This document shows positions 10,121 to 42,223 of a stretch of 64,000 bases of DNA, one piece after another (position 1 is the first letter of the stretch; the number at the start of each line of letters is the position of its first letter). The stretch is from the sequence record OQ973471.1; one strand, given 5' to 3'. A program made the position numbers and the translations under genes. Origin of the DNA: Escherichia phage AV101. The notes under the pieces are model-generated. The model searched no databases. It was not told the DNA's origin and saw nothing but the letters and a program-made list of their open reading frames with translations.

Positions 10121-10391
10121 TTACCCACCCGGTACGGAAAAGGATAGATTTATACTCTTCCACCATGTCCTGGTCGTAATCAGTTTGACGGGAATACGAT
10201 TGGGCTTCAGCACAATCAGCGCCAAGTTCCACAGAAGCCATAGCGGCTTGCATGTTCAATTTATTTTTGTACTCAGAAACCATCCCATGTCTTTCCAAAT
10301 ATTCACTTGCCTGGATAAATCGTTTTTCTCTGGCGAACATTAGACCATAGTTGATTTCTGAAAACTCTCTGTTGTATGCTTTTAATGACAT
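10107..10391 (-). CDS. Hypothetical protein
   Basis: 94 aa ORF upstream of primase. Confidence 0.35.
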   Translation of the reverse strand: MSLKAYNREFSEINYGLMFAREKRFIQASEYLERHGMVSEYKNKLNMQAAMASVELGADCAEAQSYSRQTDYDQDMVEEYKSILFRTGWVNEIS

Positions 10392-10400
10392 AATGACCTC

Positions 10401-11012
10401 TTAAATCGCTGGTCTCTGGAACACTTCGGTCACAGTATAGTCTACACCACGACTTTGAGCTATACACAGTTGACGCCAAGCCCCATACAGGATATTCTGT
10501 TCCCCAGCCATGTTGCGCTCAAAGTGGGCGAAGCCGTCGAGGAGTTCCATGTAGCTGCGCATATGCCGGGTAATGGTTCTTCCTCTCTTGATCTGTTCAT
10601 CAAGGTACTTCTGATAATGCTCTGGTGATGACAATAAAGAGTACTTCATGTCTGGCACATGAACTGGCATCAGGGACTTGCGGGGTGTGAAATAGAACAG
10701 CCCCCACTTCGGCGGTAGGTCTTCAACCCTGATCACGTCCTGAGGGCAGACATAAAAGCGGTATGCGCCCATGCCCGTCGTCGGATCCATGCGATGAGGC
10801 TTCTTCTTGTCGGTAAGGAAATCAGAGCGAGACACCTTCACTTCCATCAGGATAGAGCAACCGCCGGAACGGAACCCGATGGCATCAGGTGATTCTTTGT
10901 TGTCAAACGAATTTGGCTCGATGAAGACAGCGCCGCAGTTCATGCGACCGCGCAGGTAGTTGGCCGCGATCTCACATCCTTCGCGGTGTGACGGGATAAA
11001 GATTTTGCTCAT
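10401..11012 (-). CDS. Putative PD-(D/E)xK nuclease (MmcB-like)
   Basis: D...EVKVSRSDF motif; AAGGAAAGGA RBS before ATG at 11012. Confidence 0.4.
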   Translation of the reverse strand: MSKIFIPSHREGCEIAANYLRGRMNCGAVFIEPNSFDNKESPDAIGFRSGGCSILMEVKVSRSDFLTDKKKPHRMDPTTGMGAYRFYVCPQDVIRVEDLPPKWGLFYFTPRKSLMPVHVPDMKYSLLSSPEHYQKYLDEQIKRGRTITRHMRSYMELLDGFAHFERNMAGEQNILYGAWRQLCIAQSRGVDYTVTEVFQRPAI

Positions 11013-11069
11013 TGTCCTTTCCTTTTGGTGAATAATGAGCAAAATTATATGCCTTTATTTCGTATTGAC

Positions 11070-11423
11070 TTACGACAGCTGCTTCAGTTTGTAGATCGTC
11101 TGATAGCACAGTGTCTTGATTTCATCAAGCGTGTTCTGAAGGTGGGAGTCACACTGCTTGTAGATGCCATCGACGTCTATCACCACACTGTTGACATAGG
11201 CAATTGGGTCTGGGTTGTAGAGCTTGATGTTCTCGAATGATGGAACATACTGACCACCCGCACCGATGTATGCTTCGGTAAACGTGTCCAGCAAGTCCTC
11301 TAGATCCCCGTAGAACTCCCCGAGTGCCTTGTGCTTGGCATAGGATGTTGTAACGAAGTGCAAGGCATGAGAGTGGGCTATAGCAAGCAGTCCACGGTTG
11401 ATGAAAATACTCGCATTGACCAT
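11070..11423 (-). CDS. Hypothetical protein
   Basis: 117 aa ORF with GAGGA RBS; upstream terminator hairpin. Confidence 0.4.
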   Translation of the reverse strand: MVNASIFINRGLLAIAHSHALHFVTTSYAKHKALGEFYGDLEDLLDTFTEAYIGAGGQYVPSFENIKLYNPDPIAYVNSVVIDVDGIYKQCDSHLQNTLDEIKTLCYQTIYKLKQLS

Positions 11424-11516
11424 GATGTTGTCCTCAGAAAAAGAAATCCCCCTGTATTTAGGGGGATCCAGTTACAGACCAAGTTCTTTCGTCGTGGCGT
11501 CGTCTAGTGCAACCTC

Positions 11517-12095
11517 CTAGACAGGCTTAACACCGAGGAACTTGGCAATGTCAGCAGCCAGGTTTTTACCCTTGCTGATGTCGTGTTCTTTACCGCCGAC
11601 AGTAACGATAACATACGGGTCATCTTCACCACCGAAGTTCACGGTGATCGCCTTGCCGATGCCAGGGATGCCAGGGATGCCAGAGTATTCGAACTCAGTA
11701 CGACCACTCTTGCGAGACTTGCCAGCACCCAGTGCTTTACCGATCATCTTGTCCATGTTCGCCAGTTCCTGAGCATAGGATTCGGTCACCTGGCCTTTGT
11801 CGGCAGACTTGCCAAAGAAGAATTCGAAGCCGTCATGGACAGCAACGACTTCCTGACCTTGGGAAATACCGTGAGTCTGGTCTGGGGTCAGCTTCACCTT
11901 GATGGTGTTGCCGTTGGTTAACTCCAGGTTGTAGACATCCGCCTGATTGTCAGGAGTGATCTGGGTCACGGTAGCGCCGGAACACCACTGGGTGCCGTCA
12001 GCTTGCTTGGTGATGGATACGGTCTTACCCTGGACACCAGCATGTGTCTGAGGTTTAGCGGCTTGTTCTTTAAAGTATTGAAGGAACGGTTTCAT
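11517..12095 (-). CDS. Hypothetical late protein (possible virion component) with GIPGIPGIG repeat
   Basis: 192 aa; T4-type late promoter TATAAATA 25-32 nt upstream of the ATG. Confidence 0.45.
   Translation of the reverse strand: MKPFLQYFKEQAAKPQTHAGVQGKTVSITKQADGTQWCSGATVTQITPDNQADVYNLELTNGNTIKVKLTPDQTHGISQGQEVVAVHDGFEFFFGKSADKGQVTESYAQELANMDKMIGKALGAGKSRKSGRTEFEYSGIPGIPGIGKAITVNFGGEDDPYVIVTVGGKEHDISKGKNLAADIAKFLGVKPV
11658..11683 (-). repeat. Short in-frame tandem repeat (3 x GATGCCAGG) encoding GIPGIPGI
   Basis: Direct 9-bp repeats inside CDS 11517-12095. Confidence 0.55.
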
Positions 12096-12119
12096 CTTGA
12101 ATCTCCTCGGGATTTCAGT

Positions 12120-12127
12120 TATTTATA
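12120..12127 (-). promoter_or_regulatory. T4-type late promoter TATAAATA (minus strand)
   Basis: Exact TATAAATA on minus strand 25 nt upstream of ATG 12095, directly after a terminator hairpin. Confidence 0.5.
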
Positions 12128-12144
12128 AGCCCCCGAAGGGGCTT
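12127..12144 (-). terminator. Hairpin terminator after the 906-aa gene, abutting a late promoter
   Basis: AAGCCCC-TTCG-GGGGCTT perfect stem. Confidence 0.5.
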
Positions 12145-12151
12145 TAGATGA

Positions 12152-14872
12152 TCAGATTTTAATCTGCATGTTGCCGCCCAGGGACTGCTCATACTCACTG
12201 TATGCGCTCTCCCCGTTGCTTGCAGCCCATTCGTCCGACTGCTGAGCACGAGCCAGAGTCATCAGGTTTGGTTCAGTCGGGTTGTATCCCTTGGACTTCG
12301 CATCCTGATACACGGTCTGCAGGTACTGGTTGGCACGGTCGATCTGCCCTTTGAACTCGCGGAAAGCCCCTTCGGTTGTGTTGCGGCGGAAGGTGATATC
12401 CCAATCGACGTTCAGGGTTTGCCCATCACGGCTTGCATAGATCTGCCAATCCAGGTCGCGACCTTTTGGAGCATTGTCGCGGATGGATCCGGCGTATGTC
12501 GCAAGGTCAACGCCAGTCTTCTTCGCAGTACTCGACTCTTTCTCCAGTCTCTCGGTTTCTTTGGACAGGATACCCAACATAAATTCATTAGTGCGGCGAT
12601 CCGCCATGTCGTACCCGCGCCAAAGGACTGAACCGTTGTCGTCAACAGAAATGTCGTCCAAGAATACTTGTTTCGGATTATGCGACGTGCTTTTCAGAGT
12701 TTGCATATTCCGAGATATCATTTCCATTTTAGAAGAAATTTCATCGATCACGGCCTGAACAATATCTTTCTTCAAAGTAAGTTCATATGTCTTCGGATTG
12801 TTCAGGGTACGACCTTTATTGGATACCATAGGCGTGATCGCCACTTTGCCTTTGTCGTAGTAATAGGTCACATTCGTGGTCAATACAGCACCATCATACT
12901 TCCCAGTTTTCGGGAAATTGACGCCAGACCAAGTGATGGACATACCGTTGACAGTCTCACCAAACACCATGGCGTTGCGTGGCATCTTCAGGGTTCCAGA
13001 GTTGACCAGATCAGCGCCTTGGGCATTCAGGTCGATAGAACCATAGATGGCCCCGGTAATACGATCTTTCAGCATCAGGGTCTTGTCGCCCTTCTCTGGG
13101 ATGATTTCCAGCGGGTGCTTGCCACGCGGAGGCTCTTTGATGAGTTCCAGCAGAGCAGTGTTCCCAGGCTTCACACGATTCAGGACAGCGTCGGACACTG
13201 TCAGAGTCCAGTTTGCGGTTTCCACATAACCCCAGCCCCGAGAACGGCGAATGGCTTTGATAGGATATGGAGCGCTTGTTGGCACTGCGCTAATTTCCCA
13301 TTTGCCAGTGTACTGGGTCTTGGCAACCTCAAAGATGGACGCAATTACCGCATTGGCGACGTCACGGGCGCTACCTTTGGCCACGTTCTCCTCTTCAGCA
13401 ATTTCGCTGAAAACTGAGTATTGAACGAAACCAGCGAGGACGTTTGTGAAGTTGACAACGATAACCAACCCGCCTGCCGTCGTGTAACGACCAGCGCCCA
13501 CGCGACGGATGTTTTCACCAGGAAGAATAGAAGTGTCCAGCCCAACGTTGGTATCAATGATACCCAGAACACGAGCGATGAAACCGCTGTCACGTAATTG
13601 ATCAACACTGGTTGCACTCTCGGTCGAATCCGATGCGGATTTAGACACTTTGTTCAACTTGATAGAGACAAGGGTTTCCCCGTTGACACCGATGATATCC
13701 CATTCAGTACCCTGCTCGTTCGAGGTGCGGGCAATCTTGCGCTTTGAATTGATGGCACCTTCGTAACGCCCGTTCTTGACCACAACAGAGGCAGTAGCAG
13801 CATCAGTAGCACTTGCTGCATTTGAAAAGTCTGGGTCAGAAATACTGATGTCGACGTCACCGTTTTGAGAACGCATGCGAACACCGTTTTTGAATCGTTC
13901 CACGTTTACTTCTCGAGCACCAAGTCGTTTGGCATCAATAACAGCAGTTCCAGAACCGATAATGTTGGCTGGGTTATTTCTGTCTGAACTGTTTTGAGAA
14001 CCTTTCCAAAATTTTGTGGACGCCGTGGTGAAATCATTCAGGATACTGATAGGGACTTGCGGTAATTTCAACTGACGAGCAATGAAATCAGCACTTTGCC
14101 CACGCACAGGTTTCTCATTCATGTATGCGCCAACATACACGCCCGGCTCATTGTAGTGGGGAGCGATATTTGCCGTGTTCATGCGGCCTCTCTCCTTACC
14201 AGCCCATAACAACATGGGCTGATCCCCGTTTGAAGTTAATTTCCATCCGTTGGAATTATCAACAGAAGATGACACACCCACATCCGGAGTATTGTTCTGA
14301 ACCGGAACGTCACCGACCTTGTCTGGATCATCCCAGGTGATACCCTGCATCTTCGGACCGTCGAATACCTGAGCCGGATCTTTACCCTTGCGGACCAGCC
14401 ACACATAACCACGGTCAGGGACAGGCGCGTAGGTCAGGTCCATGACATTCAGTTTCTGTTTCAGGCCGGACTGGCGGATGATCTTAGGAATCAGGGTCAT
14501 ACCGCGATCCAGCGCTTTCTTAGAGAAGTTGACAGCAAAGCCATCGATGGTCTTACCCAGAGGAGTCGCCATGAATTGTTTGGTCGCTTCGATCATGGAA
14601 GCGATAACGCGCATTGGGTTCTTGAAGCGAGCGATGGCGTCAGGATAGACGGAGCCGCGCTTCTGGCCGATGAAAACCTGACGAACACTCTTACCCAGCC
14701 CCTGAGGGGTATAGAACTGAATACGGTATTCCTTTTCATCTTCGTCGATGAAGGTGAAGAACACATCGCCTGCGTTCTTCTTGCCCATGGTCAGCTCATA
14801 CGGAGCGGAGTTGAACGCTTCGTCCAACTGATCTCTTTCCTGCATGAACTGGAGGAAACTTAGCTTTGACAT
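12152..14872 (-). CDS. Large hypothetical protein (906 aa), function unknown
   Basis: Long ORF; AGGAG RBS before ATG at 14872; no recognisable catalytic motif. Confidence 0.5.
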   Translation of the reverse strand: MSKLSFLQFMQERDQLDEAFNSAPYELTMGKKNAGDVFFTFIDEDEKEYRIQFYTPQGLGKSVRQVFIGQKRGSVYPDAIARFKNPMRVIASMIEATKQFMATPLGKTIDGFAVNFSKKALDRGMTLIPKIIRQSGLKQKLNVMDLTYAPVPDRGYVWLVRKGKDPAQVFDGPKMQGITWDDPDKVGDVPVQNNTPDVGVSSSVDNSNGWKLTSNGDQPMLLWAGKERGRMNTANIAPHYNEPGVYVGAYMNEKPVRGQSADFIARQLKLPQVPISILNDFTTASTKFWKGSQNSSDRNNPANIIGSGTAVIDAKRLGAREVNVERFKNGVRMRSQNGDVDISISDPDFSNAASATDAATASVVVKNGRYEGAINSKRKIARTSNEQGTEWDIIGVNGETLVSIKLNKVSKSASDSTESATSVDQLRDSGFIARVLGIIDTNVGLDTSILPGENIRRVGAGRYTTAGGLVIVVNFTNVLAGFVQYSVFSEIAEEENVAKGSARDVANAVIASIFEVAKTQYTGKWEISAVPTSAPYPIKAIRRSRGWGYVETANWTLTVSDAVLNRVKPGNTALLELIKEPPRGKHPLEIIPEKGDKTLMLKDRITGAIYGSIDLNAQGADLVNSGTLKMPRNAMVFGETVNGMSITWSGVNFPKTGKYDGAVLTTNVTYYYDKGKVAITPMVSNKGRTLNNPKTYELTLKKDIVQAVIDEISSKMEMISRNMQTLKSTSHNPKQVFLDDISVDDNGSVLWRGYDMADRRTNEFMLGILSKETERLEKESSTAKKTGVDLATYAGSIRDNAPKGRDLDWQIYASRDGQTLNVDWDITFRRNTTEGAFREFKGQIDRANQYLQTVYQDAKSKGYNPTEPNLMTLARAQQSDEWAASNGESAYSEYEQSLGGNMQIKI

Positions 14873-14947
14873 TTTATATCTCCTGATGGAATTATGACGG
14901 TTTCTTCTAATTAGCGAAACCAAAAGAGAGCCGAAGCTCCCCTTATC

Positions 14948-30766: not shown

Positions 30767-31090
30767 TTATTTGCGCAGGGCAACCACGAGTTCAGAGAGT
30801 TCACCCATGGTCGGGTCATCGCCTTTACTACCTAGCCACCCGTCGTCGATTTCGACCTGAAACTCTTCTTCGAGGTCCATTACAATTTCGATAGCGTCCA
30901 GTTCATCACCGCCGAGGTCTTTCTTGGTACGGAGGCCAGCCAGCTTGTCCAGGGCGTCCTCGTTCTGAGATGCCACGTCGTCCAGCAATTTGCGCTTGTC
31001 ATCGTCACGCCACAGATCCATATTCAGATTGTCGGTGGCGTACTGAGCCAGATGACGCATGACTTCAACATATGTTGGTTTACTGCTCAT
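30767..31090 (-). CDS. Acyl-carrier-protein-like acidic protein with Ser-to-Glu substitution at the phosphopantetheine site
   Basis: KKDLGGDELDAIEIVMDLEEEFQVEIDD aligns with E. coli ACP [27 protein letters not shown]; the DSL serine is E here. Confidence 0.55.
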   Translation of the reverse strand: MSSKPTYVEVMRHLAQYATDNLNMDLWRDDDKRKLLDDVASQNEDALDKLAGLRTKKDLGGDELDAIEIVMDLEEEFQVEIDDGWLGSKGDDPTMGELSELVVALRK

Positions 31091-31132: not shown

Positions 31133-33376
31133 TTAGATTTTGATTTCTTTCTCTGTCAGTTCGGCAGTGACCTTGTACTTCACGCCATCCACTTCAACTT
31201 CCATGGTGGACTCTTCCAGGTCGAGGTCGGTGAACCAGCCGTGGCCAGCAACGATACCATACACCACTTTAGACAGTGTCTTGTTCAGGGCACGGACTTC
31301 GGTGATGGCCGCCTTGGCAGCAGCGTCGATCCAGTTTTCGATCAGCTGTTTCTGTAAGGCTTCAGGCACGGCAGTGATCATAGGAGACTTCACGAATGCT
31401 TCGTACTCTTTCAGAGCATTGGCGATGAACAAGTCACCAGCATTGAGTTTCTTGTTCTCGGCAATCTTCTTCTGTACCGCTGCGATAGACGGTAGAGATG
31501 AAGCGCCAGCGATCTTCACGTTCAGCTCACGGCTCATGTAGAAGTCGGTAGACTCTTTGGTCTCAGTCTTCGGTGAGAAGCCGTAATCGCGGATGCCGTA
31601 GGAGGACAGGAACTCGGCCGCCTCAGCGCCGTACTGTACTGCCAGGCCTTTGGCGTTACCCTTACCAACCAGGGCGTCTCGATAGAACTTCAGCACCTTC
31701 TGCTTGCCTTTCAGGGCTTCCAGACGGACATTATCCGCAAAGAACTGAGCAGCACTGATGTTCTTGACCATGGCGCGGTTGACCAGCGGTACGCTTTCCA
31801 GGTTCAGGACAAACACTTCCGGACCACCAAACACGTGGACGCCCATTTCGATCAGCTTTTGTACAACTTCGATATCAGCCTTGAACGGCAGAGTCTTCAC
31901 GTTAATGATACCGTCTTTGACGATGGTGTAGTTGCGCCACTGGAAGGTGTCCAGTTCTTCAGGTAGACCAAACTTCTTCTGTGCGAATTCAGGCACAGCC
32001 ACAGTACCGTGTTGAATTGTACGCACACTGATGTTCGGGCGCTCGGAGTTATAGACCAAATCACTGATTGGCACAACACCCAGATCGTTGGTAGGTTCGA
32101 ACGTCGGGTTCCACTCTTCGTGTTCTGCCAGCTTGAGAGCCAGGGCTTTACGCTCTTCTTTGGACTGAGCATTCGCGATCTGTTCTGCCAGCTTGTCTTC
32201 GGTGTCGTCGGTTTTCTGCACAGTACCGCGCCCGATACTCTTATAGGAGAACATCGGATGCTTGGTAGCAACAGGCACACCAGCTTCAGCCAGGTACGTC
32301 AGCACATCAACGACGGTCGTCGCATCTTCAGCCGGAACCAGGTCATAGTCAATACCGTCAACACCGCGCAGCTGGTCGTCAACGATGGCCTGGGTCAGAT
32401 CGTTCTTGATGTTGGAATAGTCCTGCTTGGTGAAGCAGTTGCTGTACTGTTTGATGAAGCGGACGTCGCCCGTCTTCTTCAGCGCAGCCCAAACCAGATC
32501 TGCGTCCATAGTGTGTACACCGTAGAACGCCAGCACGTATGCCGCCTGGATGTCCGTCAGGCTATCCATCTGGTCGATCATGTTAGGGTTTACAACCCAC
32601 AGCTTGGTGACGCTCTCAGGGATGCTCACATAGCCGACCGGGTGAGAGTCATCGTCCTGTACTGCCAGCACGGTTGCCACACCGTTTTCGACGTAGATGG
32701 CATGGGTGTAGATGACTGGGACATCAACAACCACCTTCGGCACTGAAGACTTCAGTACGTTTTCCAGCTCGGTCTGATATTCGGTCTGGCCTTCGGCAAA
32801 CACGTGAGTCGCGCCAGAGCGCTCGGACATCAGAGCCAGCAGTTCGCGGTTACAGTGCCAGCCGTATTCGATAAATGTAATGTTATCGAAAGCAAATGGC
32901 AGGGTCTCAGCAACCAGTAGAATTTCGTTGGTACGCCAGCAGTTGTCATACCCGTCAGTCATAAATGCCAGGTTGTTGACGTAGCCAGGTTTCTTCAGGT
33001 CACGCGCAGTATCCATCGCCAGTTTCAATGGCTCAACGAAACCAGTACAGCCGGATGGTTGCAGGAAACGGTCGATCAGTTTGTTCAGCTCGCTCAGGTC
33101 AGACGCAGCACTAACCTGGCGGCCAGCGAACACAGTACCAAAGTCGCCTTTGGAGGAGAAATACAGAACGCTCACAGTGTCTTCCGGCTTCACCAGGGAT
33201 GGCAGGTTCTCCTTCAGGTGCTTGCGGACTTCAGGGAGCGCACGGTACATAGAGCCGGAAATGTCTACAACGATTACATGGTTGGACGGAGCAGCAGTCG
33301 CAACCGCATTCTTAAATTCTAATGATTCAATCATTGTTCTCTTCGCCTTGTGCGTAAGGGTTAAGTTCAGACTCAT
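31133..33376 (-). CDS. von Willebrand factor A (vWA) domain protein (about 730-747 aa)
   Basis: N-terminal MIDAS motif VIVVDISGSM; start could be the internal ATG at 33334. Confidence 0.6.
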   Translation of the reverse strand: MSLNLTLTHKAKRTMIESLEFKNAVATAAPSNHVIVVDISGSMYRALPEVRKHLKENLPSLVKPEDTVSVLYFSSKGDFGTVFAGRQVSAASDLSELNKLIDRFLQPSGCTGFVEPLKLAMDTARDLKKPGYVNNLAFMTDGYDNCWRTNEILLVAETLPFAFDNITFIEYGWHCNRELLALMSERSGATHVFAEGQTEYQTELENVLKSSVPKVVVDVPVIYTHAIYVENGVATVLAVQDDDSHPVGYVSIPESVTKLWVVNPNMIDQMDSLTDIQAAYVLAFYGVHTMDADLVWAALKKTGDVRFIKQYSNCFTKQDYSNIKNDLTQAIVDDQLRGVDGIDYDLVPAEDATTVVDVLTYLAEAGVPVATKHPMFSYKSIGRGTVQKTDDTEDKLAEQIANAQSKEERKALALKLAEHEEWNPTFEPTNDLGVVPISDLVYNSERPNISVRTIQHGTVAVPEFAQKKFGLPEELDTFQWRNYTIVKDGIINVKTLPFKADIEVVQKLIEMGVHVFGGPEVFVLNLESVPLVNRAMVKNISAAQFFADNVRLEALKGKQKVLKFYRDALVGKGNAKGLAVQYGAEAAEFLSSYGIRDYGFSPKTETKESTDFYMSRELNVKIAGASSLPSIAAVQKKIAENKKLNAGDLFIANALKEYEAFVKSPMITAVPEALQKQLIENWIDAAAKAAITEVRALNKTLSKVVYGIVAGHGWFTDLDLEESTMEVEVDGVKYKVTAELTEKEIKI

Positions 33377-33644
33377 CAGCGGCTTCGATGCGCGTCTTTA
33401 CAGAGTCCAGCATATTGTTGATAAACTCACGAGACTGCTCCAGCTGAGCCAAGAGCACATCCTTTGGAGCATAGTTCTGAATGCAAGCCGGAATACTTTC
33501 AGACGTCGCCTTCAGGTCGGTAAAACATTCTTTCAGTATCATTTGATCTCACTTAACAGAGACGACGCCCTGTTGGGATTTAATAGCGGTCTTCACAGAC
33601 ATCAGGTTTCCCTCAAAACAGGGGAGTCTCCTCCCCTTCGGTTA

Positions 33645-35309
33645 TCAGATTTGTGAGGCCAGTTCTGTCACCAGAGGAGCGGCACGGACACGCGCATCTT
33701 CCAGCGTTTGGGTGTTGAAGAACTCGCCATCACGATACACCAGCTGGTGCTGGTTGTCGGCGTCTTGCACCTGATCAAAGGTGATACCGTCAACCAACAC
33801 TAGTTTACCCTGAGAGTCTTTAATGACTTTAAGGAAACCACGCGCAGACTTTTTAGTCCCGCCTTTATCGGTCTTCGGCTCTTTGAAGATCTCACGGAAT
33901 TCACCGTTCACTTTACCAGCCGTGGCTTTCACTGCTGTGCCAGTACTGTCACGGGTGTTCATCTGGTAGGTGTAGGAACCGATACCGAACACCACGTTGA
34001 TGGAAGCGAAGTTCCGGTCAGCCAGACGGCTAAAGATCTGGTCTTCACGCGACAGGGTGATAGAATCACCGTAGATCAGGCCGATGTGCTCATCCAACAG
34101 GAAGTGCCCAGTTTCAGTCTGGGTGCCACCAAAGATCTCCCACAGGCGCTGGATAGAGCCGACCGCTTCTGAACGGCTGATGATATTACGGTCATCTGCC
34201 ATCAGAGAGTTGATCGTGCCTTCGCCTGTGATCAGGTGATAGGTGTTCGTCTCTTCGATGTGGATGACTTCGGTGCTGCTGGACACGCCGCTGATGTTCA
34301 GCGTAGCGCGGTCTTTGAACCCCTCGATACGGTAGCCGCCGACGATGTGCACAGGGTCACCAGAGTCAGGGCGGATCACGACTTTACCATTGCGCGCCAT
34401 GATAATGTCTTTCAGGCGAGGCAGATAGTCGTCGATGACCTGCCAGTAATCCCACGCATCAGACACGATGCTGACGATGCCATCAGGATACACGTCCTGC
34501 ACCAGGCGGCGGAAGGTTTCGAATTCGCCATCCTTCGTGCCCATACACATCACGGCGTGTTCGGTAGCCGCAACAGAACCAGCAACGACATAATCTTCGT
34601 CGATGTCTGCGCCATAATACTCTTCTACGAAGTCCAGGGCAGGGTTGGTGTCGGTGCCTTTGAAGAACACCAGATGACCGGAACCGGAAGACGCGGCGTC
34701 ATGCCACCCGCTCATACCACGGAAGGAGAAGTCGTGGCCTTGGTAGTCGATGAACCAATGGTCCGGTGATACTCCCGTAGCGAGGGCAGCTTTCACCATC
34801 AGTGCCTTGTAATGCAGAGCGATGGTGGCGTTCGTCATCGGCTTCCAGATCTCAGAGCTGAACACAGTCTCCAGATAGTTGGTCAGCCAGTAGAACTCCG
34901 GCAGGGTATTGAACATCACATACACCGGAACACCATACGGACACATGGTGCCTTCAGGCAGCGCACGGACTTCGATAGGCAGGTAGCCGAGGTCATGCAG
35001 GGCTTCAATATGCTCTGTGCCGACGCGGCCTGGACCCAGGACTTTGTTCATGCGACGGGCATACTTCTTCAGCACCTTGGTCTTCGGGCGCTGGAAGAAT
35101 GCTTCGTCAAACAGTTCGTGGAACCAGGTCATGAAGCCCTGGATACCCCAGACCACCACGCCGTTCTTCGGCAGGTGAGAGTTGAAAAGTTTGTTAGAGC
35201 GCGGAGTTCCGTTGGAGAACACCAGCTCACTGCCTTCAGGGAACTGATAGATGTGCCCCGATTTGTAGAAGTCGATCGCATGGATTGGGTCTAAGTGGCG
35301 CATGCTCAT
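33645..35309 (-). CDS. nadV: Nicotinamide phosphoribosyltransferase (NAMPT/NadV)-family enzyme; possibly a nicotinamide ADP-ribose transferase of an NAD+ reconstitution pathway
   Basis: 554 aa; N-terminal DFYKSGH motif and overall NAMPT-like layout; 4-bp overlap with Prs-like gene. Confidence 0.8.
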   Translation of the reverse strand: MSMRHLDPIHAIDFYKSGHIYQFPEGSELVFSNGTPRSNKLFNSHLPKNGVVVWGIQGFMTWFHELFDEAFFQRPKTKVLKKYARRMNKVLGPGRVGTEHIEALHDLGYLPIEVRALPEGTMCPYGVPVYVMFNTLPEFYWLTNYLETVFSSEIWKPMTNATIALHYKALMVKAALATGVSPDHWFIDYQGHDFSFRGMSGWHDAASSGSGHLVFFKGTDTNPALDFVEEYYGADIDEDYVVAGSVAATEHAVMCMGTKDGEFETFRRLVQDVYPDGIVSIVSDAWDYWQVIDDYLPRLKDIIMARNGKVVIRPDSGDPVHIVGGYRIEGFKDRATLNISGVSSSTEVIHIEETNTYHLITGEGTINSLMADDRNIISRSEAVGSIQRLWEIFGGTQTETGHFLLDEHIGLIYGDSITLSREDQIFSRLADRNFASINVVFGIGSYTYQMNTRDSTGTAVKATAGKVNGEFREIFKEPKTDKGGTKKSARGFLKVIKDSQGKLVLVDGITFDQVQDADNQHQLVYRDGEFFNTQTLEDARVRAAPLVTELASQI

Positions 35310-36160
35310 TTTACACGTCCTGTATTTTCAGTTTTGAAAGGAAGCCCGTCGGCGGTGATGTTCTCCCACCAGACAGTGTCGGCATACACAGCATCATAGA
35401 TCCCGTCGAAAACAGAGAGACCTTTGCTGAAGATGCCATGGGTAACGAAGAGCGTCATGTGCTTAGGCTTGTGCTTCTGAAGCTCTTTGCCTAACTCAAC
35501 GAACGTGCGCCCACCGTCGCAGATATCATCGACCACCACCAGATAGCGGTCTTTGATCAGTTCAGGGTTTGTAACACTCACCCCAATGATCTCACCAGTC
35601 TTGGTATCGCGGTTCTTATGGCCGTAGACAACAGGAACACCGTCCAACGATAGGCTGAGGGCTTCGGTCTTCTTAGTCGCGCCGCCGTCAGGAGCTACCA
35701 ACACAGCGTTGTTCCCACGGATGAACCAGCCCAGATACTGACGCACGATGTAATCTTGCGGGACAACATGAACGTTGTTGATCAGAGAAGACACAACATG
35801 GCTGTGAGGATCTTTGATTACCACGCGGTCAAAGTTCATGCTATTGATGAATTCAGCCGCCCACTTCACAGACAGAGGCTCACCGAAGTCACAATGGCGG
35901 TCCTGGCGAGCATACGGGAAGTAAGGGATATACGCATGGAATGTCGTCAGACGGTCCACGTTACTCAGACCACGAACGGCGTTTACCAGAAGCGCCAGCT
36001 CAATGAAGTCGGCTGATGATTTGATGTGAGCATCAATCACCACGTTCTGAACGTGGCCGATAGGGATACCAGACTTTTGGATCTTGATATGTTCCTCACC
36101 ACCTGGGAAGGTGAAGTGTTTGTAGAACACATCTTGGTCGTTCAATTTCAAACGAAACAT
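35306..36160 (-). CDS. prs: Ribose-phosphate pyrophosphokinase (Prs)-family enzyme; possibly an ADP-ribose pyrophosphokinase
   Basis: 284 aa; YFPYARQDR, DGGATKKT and VVVDDICDGGRT motifs of the Prs/PRTase fold. Confidence 0.8.
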   Translation of the reverse strand: MFRLKLNDQDVFYKHFTFPGGEEHIKIQKSGIPIGHVQNVVIDAHIKSSADFIELALLVNAVRGLSNVDRLTTFHAYIPYFPYARQDRHCDFGEPLSVKWAAEFINSMNFDRVVIKDPHSHVVSSLINNVHVVPQDYIVRQYLGWFIRGNNAVLVAPDGGATKKTEALSLSLDGVPVVYGHKNRDTKTGEIIGVSVTNPELIKDRYLVVVDDICDGGRTFVELGKELQKHKPKHMTLFVTHGIFSKGLSVFDGIYDAVYADTVWWENITADGLPFKTENTGRVK

Positions 36161-36268
36161 AATGCAGCCTCATGGTGTATTGTACAGCCGTATTATACTG
36201 TGACGCACAAATTGAAACGCCCAGCAAATTCACTGGACGTTATTGATATTGAAAAGGTTTTGACAAAC

Positions 36269-39811: not shown

Positions 39812-40036
39812 TCAGACGATCTTACCACCGTCACAAGGCCGAGTATCACCGGAGTTGTATGCCAGCATCCCCTGCATCAACAAACGTCTTGGCCCAGAAA
39901 CTGATTTCTGTTTCCTCAACGTACTGCAGAACCGAGTAGTGCCTGGGTAAGGAGTGTACACGAGACGACCTTGCATACGAGCTTCCAGTAGGAATTCATC
40001 TGTGGCTTTGCGTAACTTGAATAATTTCCAGCTCAT
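39812..40036 (-). CDS. Hypothetical small protein downstream of HNH endonuclease
   Basis: 74 aa, ATGA overlap with HNH gene stop. Confidence 0.3.
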   Translation of the reverse strand: MSWKLFKLRKATDEFLLEARMQGRLVYTPYPGTTRFCSTLRKQKSVSGPRRLLMQGMLAYNSGDTRPCDGGKIV

Positions 40037-40962
40037 TTTTCACCCTTGTATCTTTTTAACCATTTGACGCATTTTAATGGTTCCCACCCTTTATTGAAAC
40101 GTTCGATAATGCTGTTTGTCGCATTAAAAGCCTTCAAATCCTTTGTTCCGTACACATGCATGAGGGCTTCCGCTCTTTTCATCGTCTTCAAAGATTGCAT
40201 AAGCAAATCAGCTTTTGACCAATACACATCATTTTCGGGGTTCCATTTCGCTTTCTCCCAAGGCAACTTCACTAACATACCTTTCTGGGCGTTTTCTTTC
40301 TGTTTGGCTCGTTGTTCCGGTGTGAAAGAATTGGTTAAGTCCTTCCCATAATTGGGATTGAGTTTCCCGAGTTTTGCTTGTCTAGAACGCTCCGAAAATT
40401 GCTTCAAATCTGTATTGGCGCGACGCCGCTCTAAAACCTGCCTTTTATATTCAGGGTCAGAAGCCATTCTTTCATGGATTTTCATCAATCCTTTGGTAAT
40501 TTTCTTGACTTGCTCTGGAGTTCTCTTATATCCATATTGGGGGTTATTCTTTCCTCTCCTTCCGTACATTGGGTTGTCTTTACCCACAAACCGAGAAACC
40601 CCTTTCCATTGTAAAGATAGTTGTTCGCTGAATTTAATTCTGAAACTTTCATATAAATGAGAATTAAACCGAATCCCCGATTTATTTCTTCTTCCCCCCT
40701 TTCTCATAGCCACCACAGCATACACCATTCTCGTGTTTGGGAAAGCCAATGCCAAGCACAAATGCACAAGATAATGTTGCCTGCCTGTTAATCGAACCAA
40801 ATTGTTCTTATCTTTAAAATATTCAGGGAACATGCTCTTGGGAAGGATGTGGTGTAATTCAGTGTAGTCACCATCAGAATATTTGAAAGATTGAACCATC
40901 CTCAAATACTTCTTGATGAAATGCGGTTTACCGCCTTTAGAAACCAACAATTCATAAAACAT
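40033..40962 (-). CDS. HNH homing endonuclease with NUMOD-like repeats
   Basis: ELHHILPKS...NLVRLTGRQHYLVH HNH motif; basic Lys/Arg-rich repeats; AT-rich relative to neighbours; RBS in hairpin. Confidence 0.75.
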   Translation of the reverse strand: MFYELLVSKGGKPHFIKKYLRMVQSFKYSDGDYTELHHILPKSMFPEYFKDKNNLVRLTGRQHYLVHLCLALAFPNTRMVYAVVAMRKGGRRNKSGIRFNSHLYESFRIKFSEQLSLQWKGVSRFVGKDNPMYGRRGKNNPQYGYKRTPEQVKKITKGLMKIHERMASDPEYKRQVLERRRANTDLKQFSERSRQAKLGKLNPNYGKDLTNSFTPEQRAKQKENAQKGMLVKLPWEKAKWNPENDVYWSKADLLMQSLKTMKRAEALMHVYGTKDLKAFNATNSIIERFNKGWEPLKCVKWLKRYKGEK

Positions 40963-40993
40963 AACAGGAACTCCAAAAATGAAAGTTCCTGTT
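40963..40993 (-). promoter_or_regulatory. Stem-loop partly sequestering the RBS of the HNH endonuclease gene
   Basis: AACAGGAACT-loop-AGTTCCTGTT 10-bp stem with GGAG at loop/stem junction, directly 5' of ATG 40962. Confidence 0.5.
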
Positions 40994-41023
40994 ATAATAT
41001 ACTTTGTTAACTCACAAAGTAAG

Positions 41024-42223
41024 TTACTTTTTAAATAAATTTAGCAGGTTTTTAGAACCAGATGTCGTCGCTTTAGGTTGTCCTTCCCCATCGTAACCAA
41101 CCTTCCCGCGCGGTTTTTTGCCTTGGTTGACGGCTTCTACACAACGGGTATATTTCGACAATTCACAAAAGTGGTTCTCTAATTGTTGAACATTCATACA
41201 CTGATCCCAAGGCTCTTCGGCCGACCAAAATTCTTCCCTGTTATACCCAAGAGGACCATAAACTGCGTCCTGATTATCCCGTAGCCAGAAGATGCATTCT
41301 TCGTGGGTCATACCGTCTTTGTTCAGGAACATCAGGTCGATGCCTGCGCGACAGCCTGGTCCAGCAACCGTGAAGTGGTTCTCGCTGAAAGGATATCCAG
41401 GAATGTACGTGAAATCAACCCAGATCTGATAGGCCAGGAATGGACCAAGCCCTTCGATGTCGTCATACATGCGCTGGTATACTTCCAGAGGAGTACCAAG
41501 GCGCAGCAAGTCATGGAAATAGTTTGGATACTTGTTGACGAATGCCTTCAGAGAACGGATAACACGCATCGGCATGTATGGTTCCCATCCCTCGATGGTA
41601 TATTCACCAGGATTCTCTTCGACCAGCTTTTTGGCGACCTTGTAGTCCATCTCGTCCACAATACCCTGGCCAACGCGATACACTTTCACCATCATCCCAC
41701 CGAAGCACTGCTCCTTGTGGTTGACAACCATCTCAGGGAAAGCCAGGCATTGCTTCAGGCCGCCCGTGTTGAAGGCATTGGTGAATACCTTACCACCGTC
41801 GGCCTCGAACTTCTGAAGTCGTTCGCGGGTTGCATCGAGGTTGATCTCGGCGAATTCTTTGATCGTCATCGCGCCGCCGATAGCCTGGATTGGATCCCAG
41901 AGGTTGAACATGCGGAACATCACGCAGTTGAACATCTTGTCGGCCATACCCAGAGCATCGTTGTTGACGATGTTGTTGATCAGGTTGAGAGACTGTCTGT
42001 CGTGCTCTCTCCGGACGTTACAGAATTTAACCTGGCGTAGTATGGGATTATCAGTCCAAGGAGCAGGAAGGCGCTGGACGTCCTTCTTGACGTGGATCTG
42101 ATAACGATCGCGCATCCATTCGTAAGACAGGCTGGTATGGGTCGGACTGAGAACCGGTTTGGCCGACTTTATCTTTTCTTCACGGACACCGCAGTACGGG
42201 ACGTCCAGGGCTTTATCTTTCAT
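41024..42223 (-). CDS. Hypothetical protein (399 aa), possible nucleotide/DNA-metabolism enzyme
   Basis: Long ORF between HNH gene and MazG-like gene; no motif recognised. Confidence 0.45.
   Translation of the reverse strand: MKDKALDVPYCGVREEKIKSAKPVLSPTHTSLSYEWMRDRYQIHVKKDVQRLPAPWTDNPILRQVKFCNVRREHDRQSLNLINNIVNNDALGMADKMFNCVMFRMFNLWDPIQAIGGAMTIKEFAEINLDATRERLQKFEADGGKVFTNAFNTGGLKQCLAFPEMVVNHKEQCFGGMMVKVYRVGQGIVDEMDYKVAKKLVEENPGEYTIEGWEPYMPMRVIRSLKAFVNKYPNYFHDLLRLGTPLEVYQRMYDDIEGLGPFLAYQIWVDFTYIPGYPFSENHFTVAGPGCRAGIDLMFLNKDGMTHEECIFWLRDNQDAVYGPLGYNREEFWSAEEPWDQCMNVQQLENHFCELSKYTRCVEAVNQGKKPRGKVGYDGEGQPKATTSGSKNLLNLFKK

Follow-up and report, generated by a model that had tools for sequence, protein, structure and literature searches.

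Two minus-strand open reading frames lie next to each other in the 64,000-nucleotide stretch of Escherichia phage AV101 that we analyzed (OQ973471.1; hereafter the window), which derives from an enterobacterial, Agtrevirus-like phage of the Ackermannviridae. The first-pass annotation had described a Prs-like and a NAMPT-like gene, co-directional and overlapping by 4 bp. Both ORFs and their ATGA junction are indeed present in the sequence, and the family matches lie far beyond chance. The Prs-like protein matched phrog_619 (305 bits, E = 1e-90 in a profile search), and the NAMPT-like protein matched phrog_448 (E = 1e-193), NF006629 (E = 1e-141) and PF04095 (E = 3e-32). The following features define the pair:

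35306–36160, minus strand: adps, putative ADP-ribose pyrophosphate synthetase (Prs family), module gene 1; ORF of 284 aa with an ATG start
33645–35309, minus strand: namat, putative nicotinamide ADP-ribose transferase (NAMPT family), module gene 2; ORF of 554 aa with an ATG start
35306–35309, minus strand: ATGA, the 4-bp overlap between the stop codon of adps (TGA) and the start codon of namat (ATG), read from the bases as gta aaA TGA gca tg
36168–36171, minus strand: GAGG, read from the bases, a putative Shine-Dalgarno sequence preceding the adps ATG by 7 nt

The ATGA overlap, through which translation of the two genes may be coupled, is likewise annotated in LHE287 (the closest relative, with a complete genome of 149 kb), May and allotria. 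NARP1 systems are recognized by a Namat homologue no more than ten genes from adps, typically in the same operon. Here namat directly follows adps on the same strand, which is the gene order of the reference NARP1 operons. A scan for promoters and terminators between 33000 and 37800 returned counts no higher than in shuffled sequence. One perfect TATAAT (36192–36197) has no −35 partner, and we do not claim it as a promoter.

The Prs-like protein and the Adps clade

Cellular Prs (E. coli b1207) and NAMPT (human, Xanthomonas) share their superfamilies with the window pair, as well as the underlying chemistry: pyrophosphoryl transfer from ATP in one case, and displacement of pyrophosphate by nicotinamide in the other. 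To separate Prs from Adps within this common framework, we relied on calibrated profile scores. Against TIGR01251 the window protein scored 108.3 bits (E = 3e-31), short of the cutoff of 113. Four reference Adps proteins (SPbetaL1, FADO, a Felix-O1-like relative of Bas63, and ICP1) scored 96–119 bits on the same model, whereas E. coli Prs scored 423. All 11 of the curated NCBIfam/TIGRFAM Prs models returned sub-cutoff scores for the window protein, so it does not qualify as a canonical Prs. Its scores on the Prs equivalog models were 51–94 bits against cutoffs of 296–536, while E. coli Prs passed the curated models with 423–533 bits. The match of the window protein to the Prs model also stops at model position 252 of 309.

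Pairwise similarity is a weaker point for the Adps reading. With phmmer, the window protein scored 79 bits against SPbetaL1 Adps (32% identity) and 60 against E. coli Prs, a narrow margin. It is 35% identical to Bas63 Adps (129 bits), with which it has the motifs DDICDGGRTF and THGIFSKG in common, and identity to the characterized Adps proteins as a group is only 32–35%. The catalytic lysine of SPbetaL1 Adps is conserved:

35615–35617, minus strand: codon of Adps Lys182, equivalent to SPbetaL1 Adps catalytic Lys162 by alignment mapping; within GHKNRDTKTGEI

The K162A mutant of SPbetaL1 Adps is inactive (Osterman et al., bioRxiv 10.1101/2024.02.11.579819). A search of the PDB recovered no Adps structure, the top match being a cellular Prs at 68.6 bits, and a literature search found no account of Adps specificity determinants. 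Our neighbor-joining tree of Adps contained one E. coli Prs outgroup on a long branch and is unable to test Adps monophyly; we therefore used the calibrated profile scores together with the published tree, on which that monophyly rests. By these measures the window protein belongs to the phage Adps clade, apart from cellular Prs.

Clade, selectivity clamp and insertion of the NAMPT-like protein

The second protein is more clearly resolved. It scored 394–493 bits against NARP1 Namats (FADO, 470; Felix-O1/Bas63 type, 428; Vequintavirinae, 492; ICP1, 394), but only 129–148 bits, at 25–30% identity, against the Nampts of NARP2, which we represented by Yersinia phage fHe-Yen9-04, Klebsiella phage KP1 and Aeromonas phage Aes508. 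The same split is seen among structures: SPbetaL1 Namat (PDB 9W5X/9W5W) matched with 456.5 bits and human and rodent NAMPT with about 174. The second-best structural match, 9KE8/9KEO, scored 355 bits and carries the motif GAQTYQRNTRD; a literature search found no paper citing these entries. A neighbor-joining tree places the window protein among the Namats. One candidate discriminator failed: the window protein passes the NF006629 cutoff with 473 bits, but validated Namats pass it equally, and the model is uninformative because Namats and Nampts score alike on it (424–594 bits). On sequence grounds, then, we assign the protein to the Adps-associated (Namat) clade and not to the Nmnat-associated Nampt clade.

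Three segments of the protein were compared with SPbetaL1 Namat and published consensus sequences:

35172–35207, minus strand: selectivity-clamp loop (SCL) of Namat, aa 35–46, TPRSNKLFNSHL, by alignment, with Lys40 where SPbetaL1 has Arg40
34161–34334, minus strand: insertion in Namat, approximately aa 326–383, directly after the ribose-binding RPDSGDP, by HMMER/MAFFT alignment
33948–33980, minus strand: selectivity-clamp helix (SCH) of Namat, G444-SYTYQMNTR-D454, by alignment and published consensus

The catalytic core is intact in the alignment: F194, R197, D220, H251, R313 and D315 correspond to F189, R192, D215, the catalytic His, R306 and D308 of SPbetaL1 Namat. The SCH of the window protein, GSYTYQMNTRD (GSFTYQYNTRD in SPbetaL1), fits the Namat consensus GS-X-Phi-X-Phi-X-Phi-TRD with an aromatic at position 3 (PMC12774641), and Tyr446 occupies that adenine-stacking position. 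Nampts instead carry GGGLLQxVxRD there. The first-pass annotation had held that sequence alone cannot separate NARP1 from ordinary PRPP/NMN synthesis. It largely can: the Namat and Nampt clades lie about 250–350 bits apart, and the motifs GS[YF]TYQ..TRD (Namat) and GGGLLQ..RD (Nampt) also tell them apart.

The sole deviation of the pair is at SCH position 7, where the window protein has Met450 in place of the Tyr or Phe found in most Namats. The equivalent residue in SPbetaL1, Y396, contacts adenine, but an aromatic is found there "most often" and is not strictly defining. In the SCL, the published rule permits R, K or Y as the third residue, with a stacking residue there or beside it. Lys40 conforms at the third residue; it is followed by the non-aromatic Leu41 and then Phe42, an arrangement resembling the K-N-F of the Vequintavirinae phage Antha. 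Met450 and Lys40-Leu41 are invariant in the Agtrevirus-like, Kuttervirus and Taipeivirus proteins, that is, across three Ackermannviridae genera.

The NAMPT-like protein had also been flagged as unusually long. At 554 aa it is normal for its clade, in which Gram-negative myovirus Namats reach 577 aa (Vequintavirinae) and 593 aa (Felix-O1/Bas63 type). The length is explained by an insertion of about 50–58 aa: HMMER left residues 326–383 unaligned to SPbetaL1 Namat, and MAFFT placed a gap at 326–371. A homologous insertion occurs in Antha and a longer one in the Felix-O1/Bas63-type Namat. Half of the amino acid differences between the window and Kuttervirus Namats fall in residues 330–341. A single-sequence AlphaFold2 model of the 554-aa protein was unusable (mean pLDDT 34.9, pTM 0.25).

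Among the characterized systems, Bas63/JohannRWettstein (Felixounavirus) offers a close parallel, as it is also a Gram-negative myovirus and encodes NARP1 in the same order, adps then namat, as genes 79–80 (bioRxiv 10.1101/2024.02.11.579819). Its type of Namat, with about 45% identity to the window protein, has the same SYTYQ..TRD clamp, and there too RPDSGDPVHIV-GY is followed by the insertion. It differs in its length (593 aa), its larger insertion, the Tyr at SCH position 7, the Trp after the SCL Lys, and a short spacer between the genes where the window genes overlap. For Bas63 NARP1 a phenotype has been observed in vivo. The Bacillus phage SPbetaL1 system (Adps WIT26982, Namat WIT26983) has the same core F, R, D, H, R and D, the same Adps catalytic Lys and genes that abut or overlap like the window pair, but its Namat is 491 aa long, lacks the insertion and has Arg40 as a stacking residue.

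Alternative readings

If the pair were instead a true PRPP synthetase and a true nicotinamide phosphoribosyltransferase, it would boost canonical salvage by producing NMN, which host NadR (or PncC, NadD and NadE) would convert to NAD+. The database names and the Pfam and NCBIfam matches, including the NF006629 hit passed equally by validated Namats, are those of Prs and NAMPT/NAPRTase, and Met450 replaces an adenine-stacking aromatic. The E. coli host possesses NadR, NadD and PncC. Since Namats still form NMN from PRPP in vitro (bioRxiv 10.1101/2024.02.11.579819; PMC12774641), some canonical flux through these host enzymes may occur. Against this reading, the Prs-like protein falls under every curated Prs cutoff with an Adps-like score, and the NAMPT-like protein groups with the Namats and has their clamp motif. 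In 94% of cases, moreover, a phage Nmnat occurs alongside PRPP-preferring phage Nampts, and none was detected here: when the window and LHE287 were searched by tblastn with a phage NadM-Nudix NMNAT and with NadD and NadR of E. coli, the best E was 1.4, although remote homologues could escape such a search. The LHE287 annotation lists no NMNAT. These searches agree with the earlier statement that the window has no NMNAT/Nudix gene. We consider canonical salvage quite unlikely as the role of the pair.

The Nampt + Nmnat (NadV-NatV) route can be set aside on similar grounds, as the first-pass annotation had already judged. NARP2 (KVP40-type Nampt plus NadM/Nudix Nmnat) has the NAMPT fold, the catalytic residues and the NAD+-restoring purpose in common with the window module, but its Nampts score low against the window protein, have no adjoining Prs-like gene, and require a phage Nmnat, which in Yen9-04 lies beside the Nampt. 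No phage is reported to carry both NARP1 and NARP2, and the lack of a detectable NMNAT in the window and LHE287 is in line with that mutual absence.

Could the Ackermannviridae Namat have shifted in function? Met450, Lys40-Leu41 and the insertion near RPDSGD might change donor selectivity, for example towards efficient use of PRPP as well as ADPR-PP, or add a docking or regulatory function undescribed for SPbetaL1 Namat; we regard such a shift as improbable. More specifically, the clamp residues and insertion might make a dual-donor Namat that accepts both ADPR-PP and PRPP, or the insertion might serve in Adps docking or regulation, and this we regard as highly improbable. The invariance of these residues across three genera and the maintenance of the insertion under purifying selection speak for such a variant, and SPbetaL1 double clamp mutants lose NAD+ synthesis while keeping NMN synthesis (PMC12774641). 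However, single mutations in either clamp element of SPbetaL1 Namat (SCL or SCH) lower activity only 1.3–1.7-fold (PMC12774641), Tyr446 at position 3 and the TRD triad are intact in the window protein, and the insertion is also present in the Bas63 Namat, a normal NARP1 enzyme in vivo.

Finally, the genes might be decaying remnants. The module has been lost in some relatives: LIMEstone1 retains no more than a C-terminal remnant of 111 aa, RPN242 lacks nearly the whole of the two genes, and a fused ORF stands in the Ag3 record. In the window, however, both ORFs are full length with every catalytic residue present, and strong purifying selection acts on both genes, with dN/dS of 0.03–0.07 against three relatives across three genera. 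The codon-aligned value for Namat against phage May is 0.063; an ungapped estimate of 0.256 for the same comparison was spurious because of two compensating indels. We give decay almost no weight.

A probable NARP1 module in Ackermannviridae

We conclude that the pair is very probably a two-gene NARP1 anti-defence module of an Ackermannviridae phage. This was the leading candidate of the first-pass annotation, and the clade scores, the clamp motif, the sub-threshold Prs scores, gene adjacency, the lack of an NMNAT and existing catalogue entries all support it.

By analogy with the homologues of SPbetaL1, Bas63, FADO and ICP1, the module would act when a host NADase defence with SIR2, TIR or SEFIR effectors, such as Thoeris I, DSR1/2 or SIR2-HerA/Nezha, cleaves NAD+ to ADP-ribose and nicotinamide. 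Adps would use ATP to pyrophosphorylate ADP-ribose to ADPR-PP, and Namat would exchange the pyrophosphate of ADPR-PP for nicotinamide. As this step would regenerate NAD+ directly, an NMN adenylyltransferase would not be needed. The extended versions of the system, NARP1-AP (with the Macro-domain phosphatase Adpp) and RyDEP-containing NARP1, have the same Adps + Namat core. In the five ORFs on each side of the window pair, a Pfam search detected no Macro (Adpp), RyR (RyDEP) or other ADPR-handling domain, its only matches being DUF3268, VWA and a weak acyl-carrier hit. The window module is therefore a minimal two-gene NARP1, and by the published logic it should not counter aRES.

NARP1 has been known since 2024, and about 4% of sequenced phages are reported to carry it. 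The window copy is a typical one, and the published catalogue already covers the module in this phage family. Osterman Table S1 gives the Prs-like proteins of SKML-39, P46FS4, 0507-KN2-1 and Ag3 the entry "Namat within 10 genes: Yes", and in Table S2 the NAMPT-like proteins of the same four phages appear as "Adps-associated". Orthologues from SKML-39 and P46FS4 with 97% identity to the window proteins are among these entries; for the window Adps, identity to the Table S1 proteins of these two phages is 97.2–97.5%, and the N-terminal 75 aa of the window Namat are identical to the SKML-39 entry of Table S2. Our literature search for Ackermannviridae and NARP1 returned an unrelated result only, and no paper linking the two.

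The finding is accordingly of value for annotation and of little as discovery. The current database labels, "ribose-phosphate pyrophosphokinase" and "nicotinamide phosphoribosyltransferase", imply PRPP and NMN synthesis; in public records of this phage family, Adps and Namat, identified as an anti-defence module, would be better labels. RPN242 and LIMEstone1, which have lost the module, permit a natural comparison in host-range studies that use strains with NADase defences.

The gene pair and its genomic setting

At the nucleotide level, Escherichia phages YX22 and LHE287 matched the 4-kb region around the pair at 98% identity, and the Salmonella/Shigella Agtrevirus phages SKML-39, P46FS4, and MK-13 at ~94%; Kuttervirus, Taipeivirus, and Limestonevirus contain further relatives. 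These matches place the window in an Ackermannviridae (Vi1-like) myovirus. In LHE287, the closest complete relative (149 kb), its counterpart spans approximately 61.8–123.7 kb. An ORF listing and a base-level reading of the junction recovered both genes, and their 4-bp overlap, where the first-pass annotation had placed them:

35306..36160, minus strand: Adps (ADPR-pyrophosphate synthetase, Prs-like), 284 aa, ATG start
33645..35309, minus strand: Namat (nicotinamide ADPR-transferase, NAMPT-like), 554 aa, ATG start

At the junction (...gta aaA TGA gca tg...), the adps stop and the namat start share four bases, which suggests that both proteins are made together; a GAGG Shine-Dalgarno sequence lies 7 nt 5' of the adps ATG. 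The family assignments are unambiguous: Adps matched Pribosyltran, Pribosyltran_N, TIGR01251 (E=3e-31), and phrog_619 (E=1e-90), and Namat matched PF04095, NF006629 (E=1e-141), and phrog_448 (E=1e-193). Because the five genes on either side encode neither a Macro domain (as in Adpp of NARP1-AP) nor an RyR domain (as in RyDEP), the AV101 pair is the minimal two-gene form of NARP1, the Adps + Namat pathway that rebuilds NAD+. By the published logic, this form should not counter aRES.

Directly downstream, the region 30767-31090 / 31133-33376 (minus strand) encodes a 747-aa protein with a von Willebrand A domain, which the annotation of Dickeya phage LIMEstone1 gives as confirmed structural, and a small acyl-carrier-protein-like ORF (PF00550, 23.8 bits); the arrangement is kept across Kuttervirus, Taipeivirus, and Limestonevirus. 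Elsewhere in the window, a 309-aa homing-endonuclease-like ORF with a NUMOD3 motif (40033-40962, minus) sits in a 1.4-kb low-GC segment (39815-41189, 44% GC) that is absent from LHE287 and is probably a mobile endonuclease insertion. The helical domain of 5-hmdU DNA kinase (PF18723, E=3e-79) is recognised in a 399-aa protein (41024-42223, minus); Vi1-like phages are known to hypermodify thymidine by a pathway to which this kinase belongs. The ~4.2 kb at 10121-14293 lacks a nucleotide match in LHE287 and is a variable genome region; a DUF5856 protein is encoded there (11070-11423), as is a portion of a 923-aa ORF without a Pfam match (12152-14923).

Comparison of Namat with Nampt

The best PDB matches of AV101 Namat were 9W5X and 9W5W (456.5 bits, E=1e-135), which their source paper confirms to be SPbetaL1 Namat, versus only ~174 bits for human and rodent NAMPT. 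Phmmer scores fell into two groups, and a neighbor-joining tree gave the same Namat/Nampt division. Across 50,697 phage records, identity to AV101 Namat was likewise bimodal, at 37–46% for Namat-type proteins versus 25–30% for T4-like phage proteins.

Table. Phmmer scores against AV101 Namat
Antha (Vequintavirinae), NARP1 Namat: 492 bits
FADO, NARP1 Namat: 470 bits
SPbetaL1, NARP1 Namat: 456 bits
allfine (Felix-O1/Bas63-type), NARP1 Namat: 428 bits
ICP1, NARP1 Namat: 394 bits
Yen9-04, NARP2-type Nampt: 148 bits
KP1, NARP2-type Nampt: 138 bits
Aes508, NARP2-type Nampt: 129 bits

All core residues are kept (F194, R197, D220, H251, R313, D315, and D415). The Namat selectivity clamp combines a helix with the consensus GS-X-Phi-X-Phi-X-Phi-TRD (PMC12774641) and a variable loop between beta1 and beta2; by the published rule, R, K or Y occupies the third position of the loop. 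In AV101 the helix reads G444-SYTYQMNTR-D454, in contrast to the GGGLLQxVxRD of NARP2-type enzymes, and the loop reads TPRSNKLF, with Lys40. AV101 Namat departs from the pattern at only two sites: residue 450 is Met rather than the Tyr or Phe usual among Namats (Y396 in SPbetaL1), and Leu41 follows Lys40 in the loop. Its orthologues from Kuttervirus and Taipeivirus all share these two residues. Because single clamp mutations in loop or helix lower SPbetaL1 Namat activity only 1.3–1.7-fold (PMC12774641), we treat the two differences as probable lineage variation rather than failed Namat membership. The second-best solved structure, 9KE8/9KEO (495 aa, 355 bits), is named 'nicotinamide phosphoribosyltransferase' and carries a clamp-like motif, GAQTYQRNTRD, that falls between those of Namats and Nampts.

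The 554-aa length, at first considered unusual, proved normal for this sub-clade: lengths of 550–590 aa are found among many Gram-negative phage homologues. A single insertion accounts for the extra residues; it lies at approximately residues 326-383, directly after the RPDSGDP ribose-binding motif; relative to SPbetaL1 Namat, HMMER left 326-383 unaligned and MAFFT placed a gap at 326-371. Vequintavirinae Namat (577 aa) has a recognisably homologous insertion, and Felix-O1/Bas63-type Namat (593 aa) a longer one with the same ...RPDSGDPVHIV-GY... junction; Bas63 Namat, of the same long sub-clade, has been validated in vivo. Half of the substitutions between AV101 and Kuttervirus Namat fall within residues 330-341, as would be expected of a surface element.

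Adps and the choice between pathways

The case is weaker for Adps, given how strongly Adps proteins diverge among themselves: AV101 Adps is 35% identical to that of Bas63 (129 bits) and 32% identical to that of SPbetaL1 (92 bits). By phmmer, it scored 193 bits with Antha, 125 with ICP1, 120 with the Felix-O1-type protein, 79 with SPbetaL1, 69 with FADO, and 60 with E. coli Prs; the best solved cellular Prs reached 68.6 bits. Against TIGR01251, the curated Prs model (cutoff 113 bits), it scored within the range of other Adps proteins, and it passed none of the 11 NCBIfam Prs models.

Table. TIGR01251 scores
E. coli Prs: 422.7 bits
allfine (Felix-O1-type) Adps: 118.8 bits
AV101 Adps: 108.3 bits
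SPbetaL1 Adps: 106 bits
ICP1 Adps: 98.2 bits
FADO Adps: 96.5 bits

The catalytic lysine (K162 in SPbetaL1) is kept as K182, as is K-x-R-[DN]-x-x-TG-[EAD]-I, common to all Adps aligned. Monophyly of Adps relative to many cellular Prs comes from the published tree, which takes in 97%-identical orthologues.

Osterman et al. (bioRxiv 10.1101/2024.02.11.579819) have shown that a phage operon of the Prs-like/NAMPT-like type does something other than make PRPP and NMN: Adps adds pyrophosphate to ADP-ribose, yielding ADPR-PP, which Namat combines with nicotinamide to form NAD+. In the same study, SPbetaL1 Adps formed no product from the substrate of Prs, and the two enzymes together rescued phages facing SIR2-HerA, Thoeris I, DSR1/2, and SEFIR. 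The ICP1 pair, NrsA/NrsB, counters Nezha. By analogy with SPbetaL1, Bas63, FADO, and ICP1, from which its chemistry and phenotype are drawn, the AV101 pair very probably functions as NARP1: once an NADase effector of the host had cleaved NAD+, Adps would convert ADPR and ATP to ADPR-PP, from which Namat would, with nicotinamide, regenerate NAD+. The main alternative, ordinary PRPP/NMN synthesis finished by host NadR, is disfavoured by every comparative test, and we regard it as quite improbable. Sequence and profile scores put the two proteins on the Namat and Adps side rather than with Nampt and Prs (394–492 bits with Namats versus 129–148 with Nampts; an Adps-like 108.3 bits against TIGR01251), as do the clamp residues for Namat, which supports the NAD+-reconstitution reading of the first-pass annotation. 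Equally hard to credit is a shifted donor selectivity of Ackermannviridae Namat, or an extra role for its insertion.

The window had also been read as lacking an NMN adenylyltransferase/Nudix gene. Tblastn agreed: with the NadM-Nudix NMNAT that Yersinia phage fHe-Yen9-04 carries in a NARP2-type locus, and with NadD and NadR of E. coli, it found nothing better than E=1.4 in the window or, extending the search, in the complete LHE287 genome, whose annotation lists no adenylyltransferase of this kind. This absence agrees with the published observation that no phage carries NARP1 together with NARP2, the Nampt + Nmnat pathway.

Distribution, selection and loss of the module

NARP1 has been reported in 859 phage genomes (Osterman et al.). 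Among 50,697 phage records, we found Adps homologues in 1,571 and Namat/Nampt homologues in 2,046, frequencies that agree with the published ones. In the supplementary tables of Osterman et al., SKML-39, P46FS4, 0507-KN2-1, and Ag3 have their Prs-like proteins marked 'Namat within 10 genes: Yes' and their NAMPT-like proteins marked 'Adps-associated'. AV101 Adps is 97.2–97.5% identical to the tabulated SKML-39 and P46FS4 proteins, and over residues 1-75 its Namat does not differ from the SKML-39 entry. The module of this phage family is thus already catalogued as NARP1, and the AV101 pair is a known system with near-identical catalogued orthologues.

In Shigella phage Ag3 (FJ373894_00125), a single ORF fuses Adps(1-222) to Namat(226-554), with ...DDICDGGRTFVE running directly into EYYGADIDEDY..., reflecting an in-frame deletion that spans the two genes or else an error of assembly. 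Phrog_12872 (547 positions) is therefore a chimera of Adps 1-222 and Namat 226-554; both AV101 proteins match it strongly, which could mislead automated annotation.

Relative to LHE287, a Kuttervirus, and a Taipeivirus, dN/dS was 0.04–0.07 for adps and 0.03–0.06 for namat. Despite these low values, the module is accessory. Besides Ag3, whose record has the fused ORF, two relatives illustrate this: in LIMEstone1 (NC_019925; locus L018, 4998-5330) all that is left is a 111-aa C-terminal 'nadV' remnant, near the homing endonuclease F-LimVI, and Escherichia phage RPN242 (OL656110; locus L019, 4864-5134) has lost the equivalents of window positions 36010-34184 and 34040-33596 while its flanking genes are conserved. 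The affected region corresponds to window positions 33596-36140. These two phages are natural knock-outs usable for testing the anti-defence role of the module.
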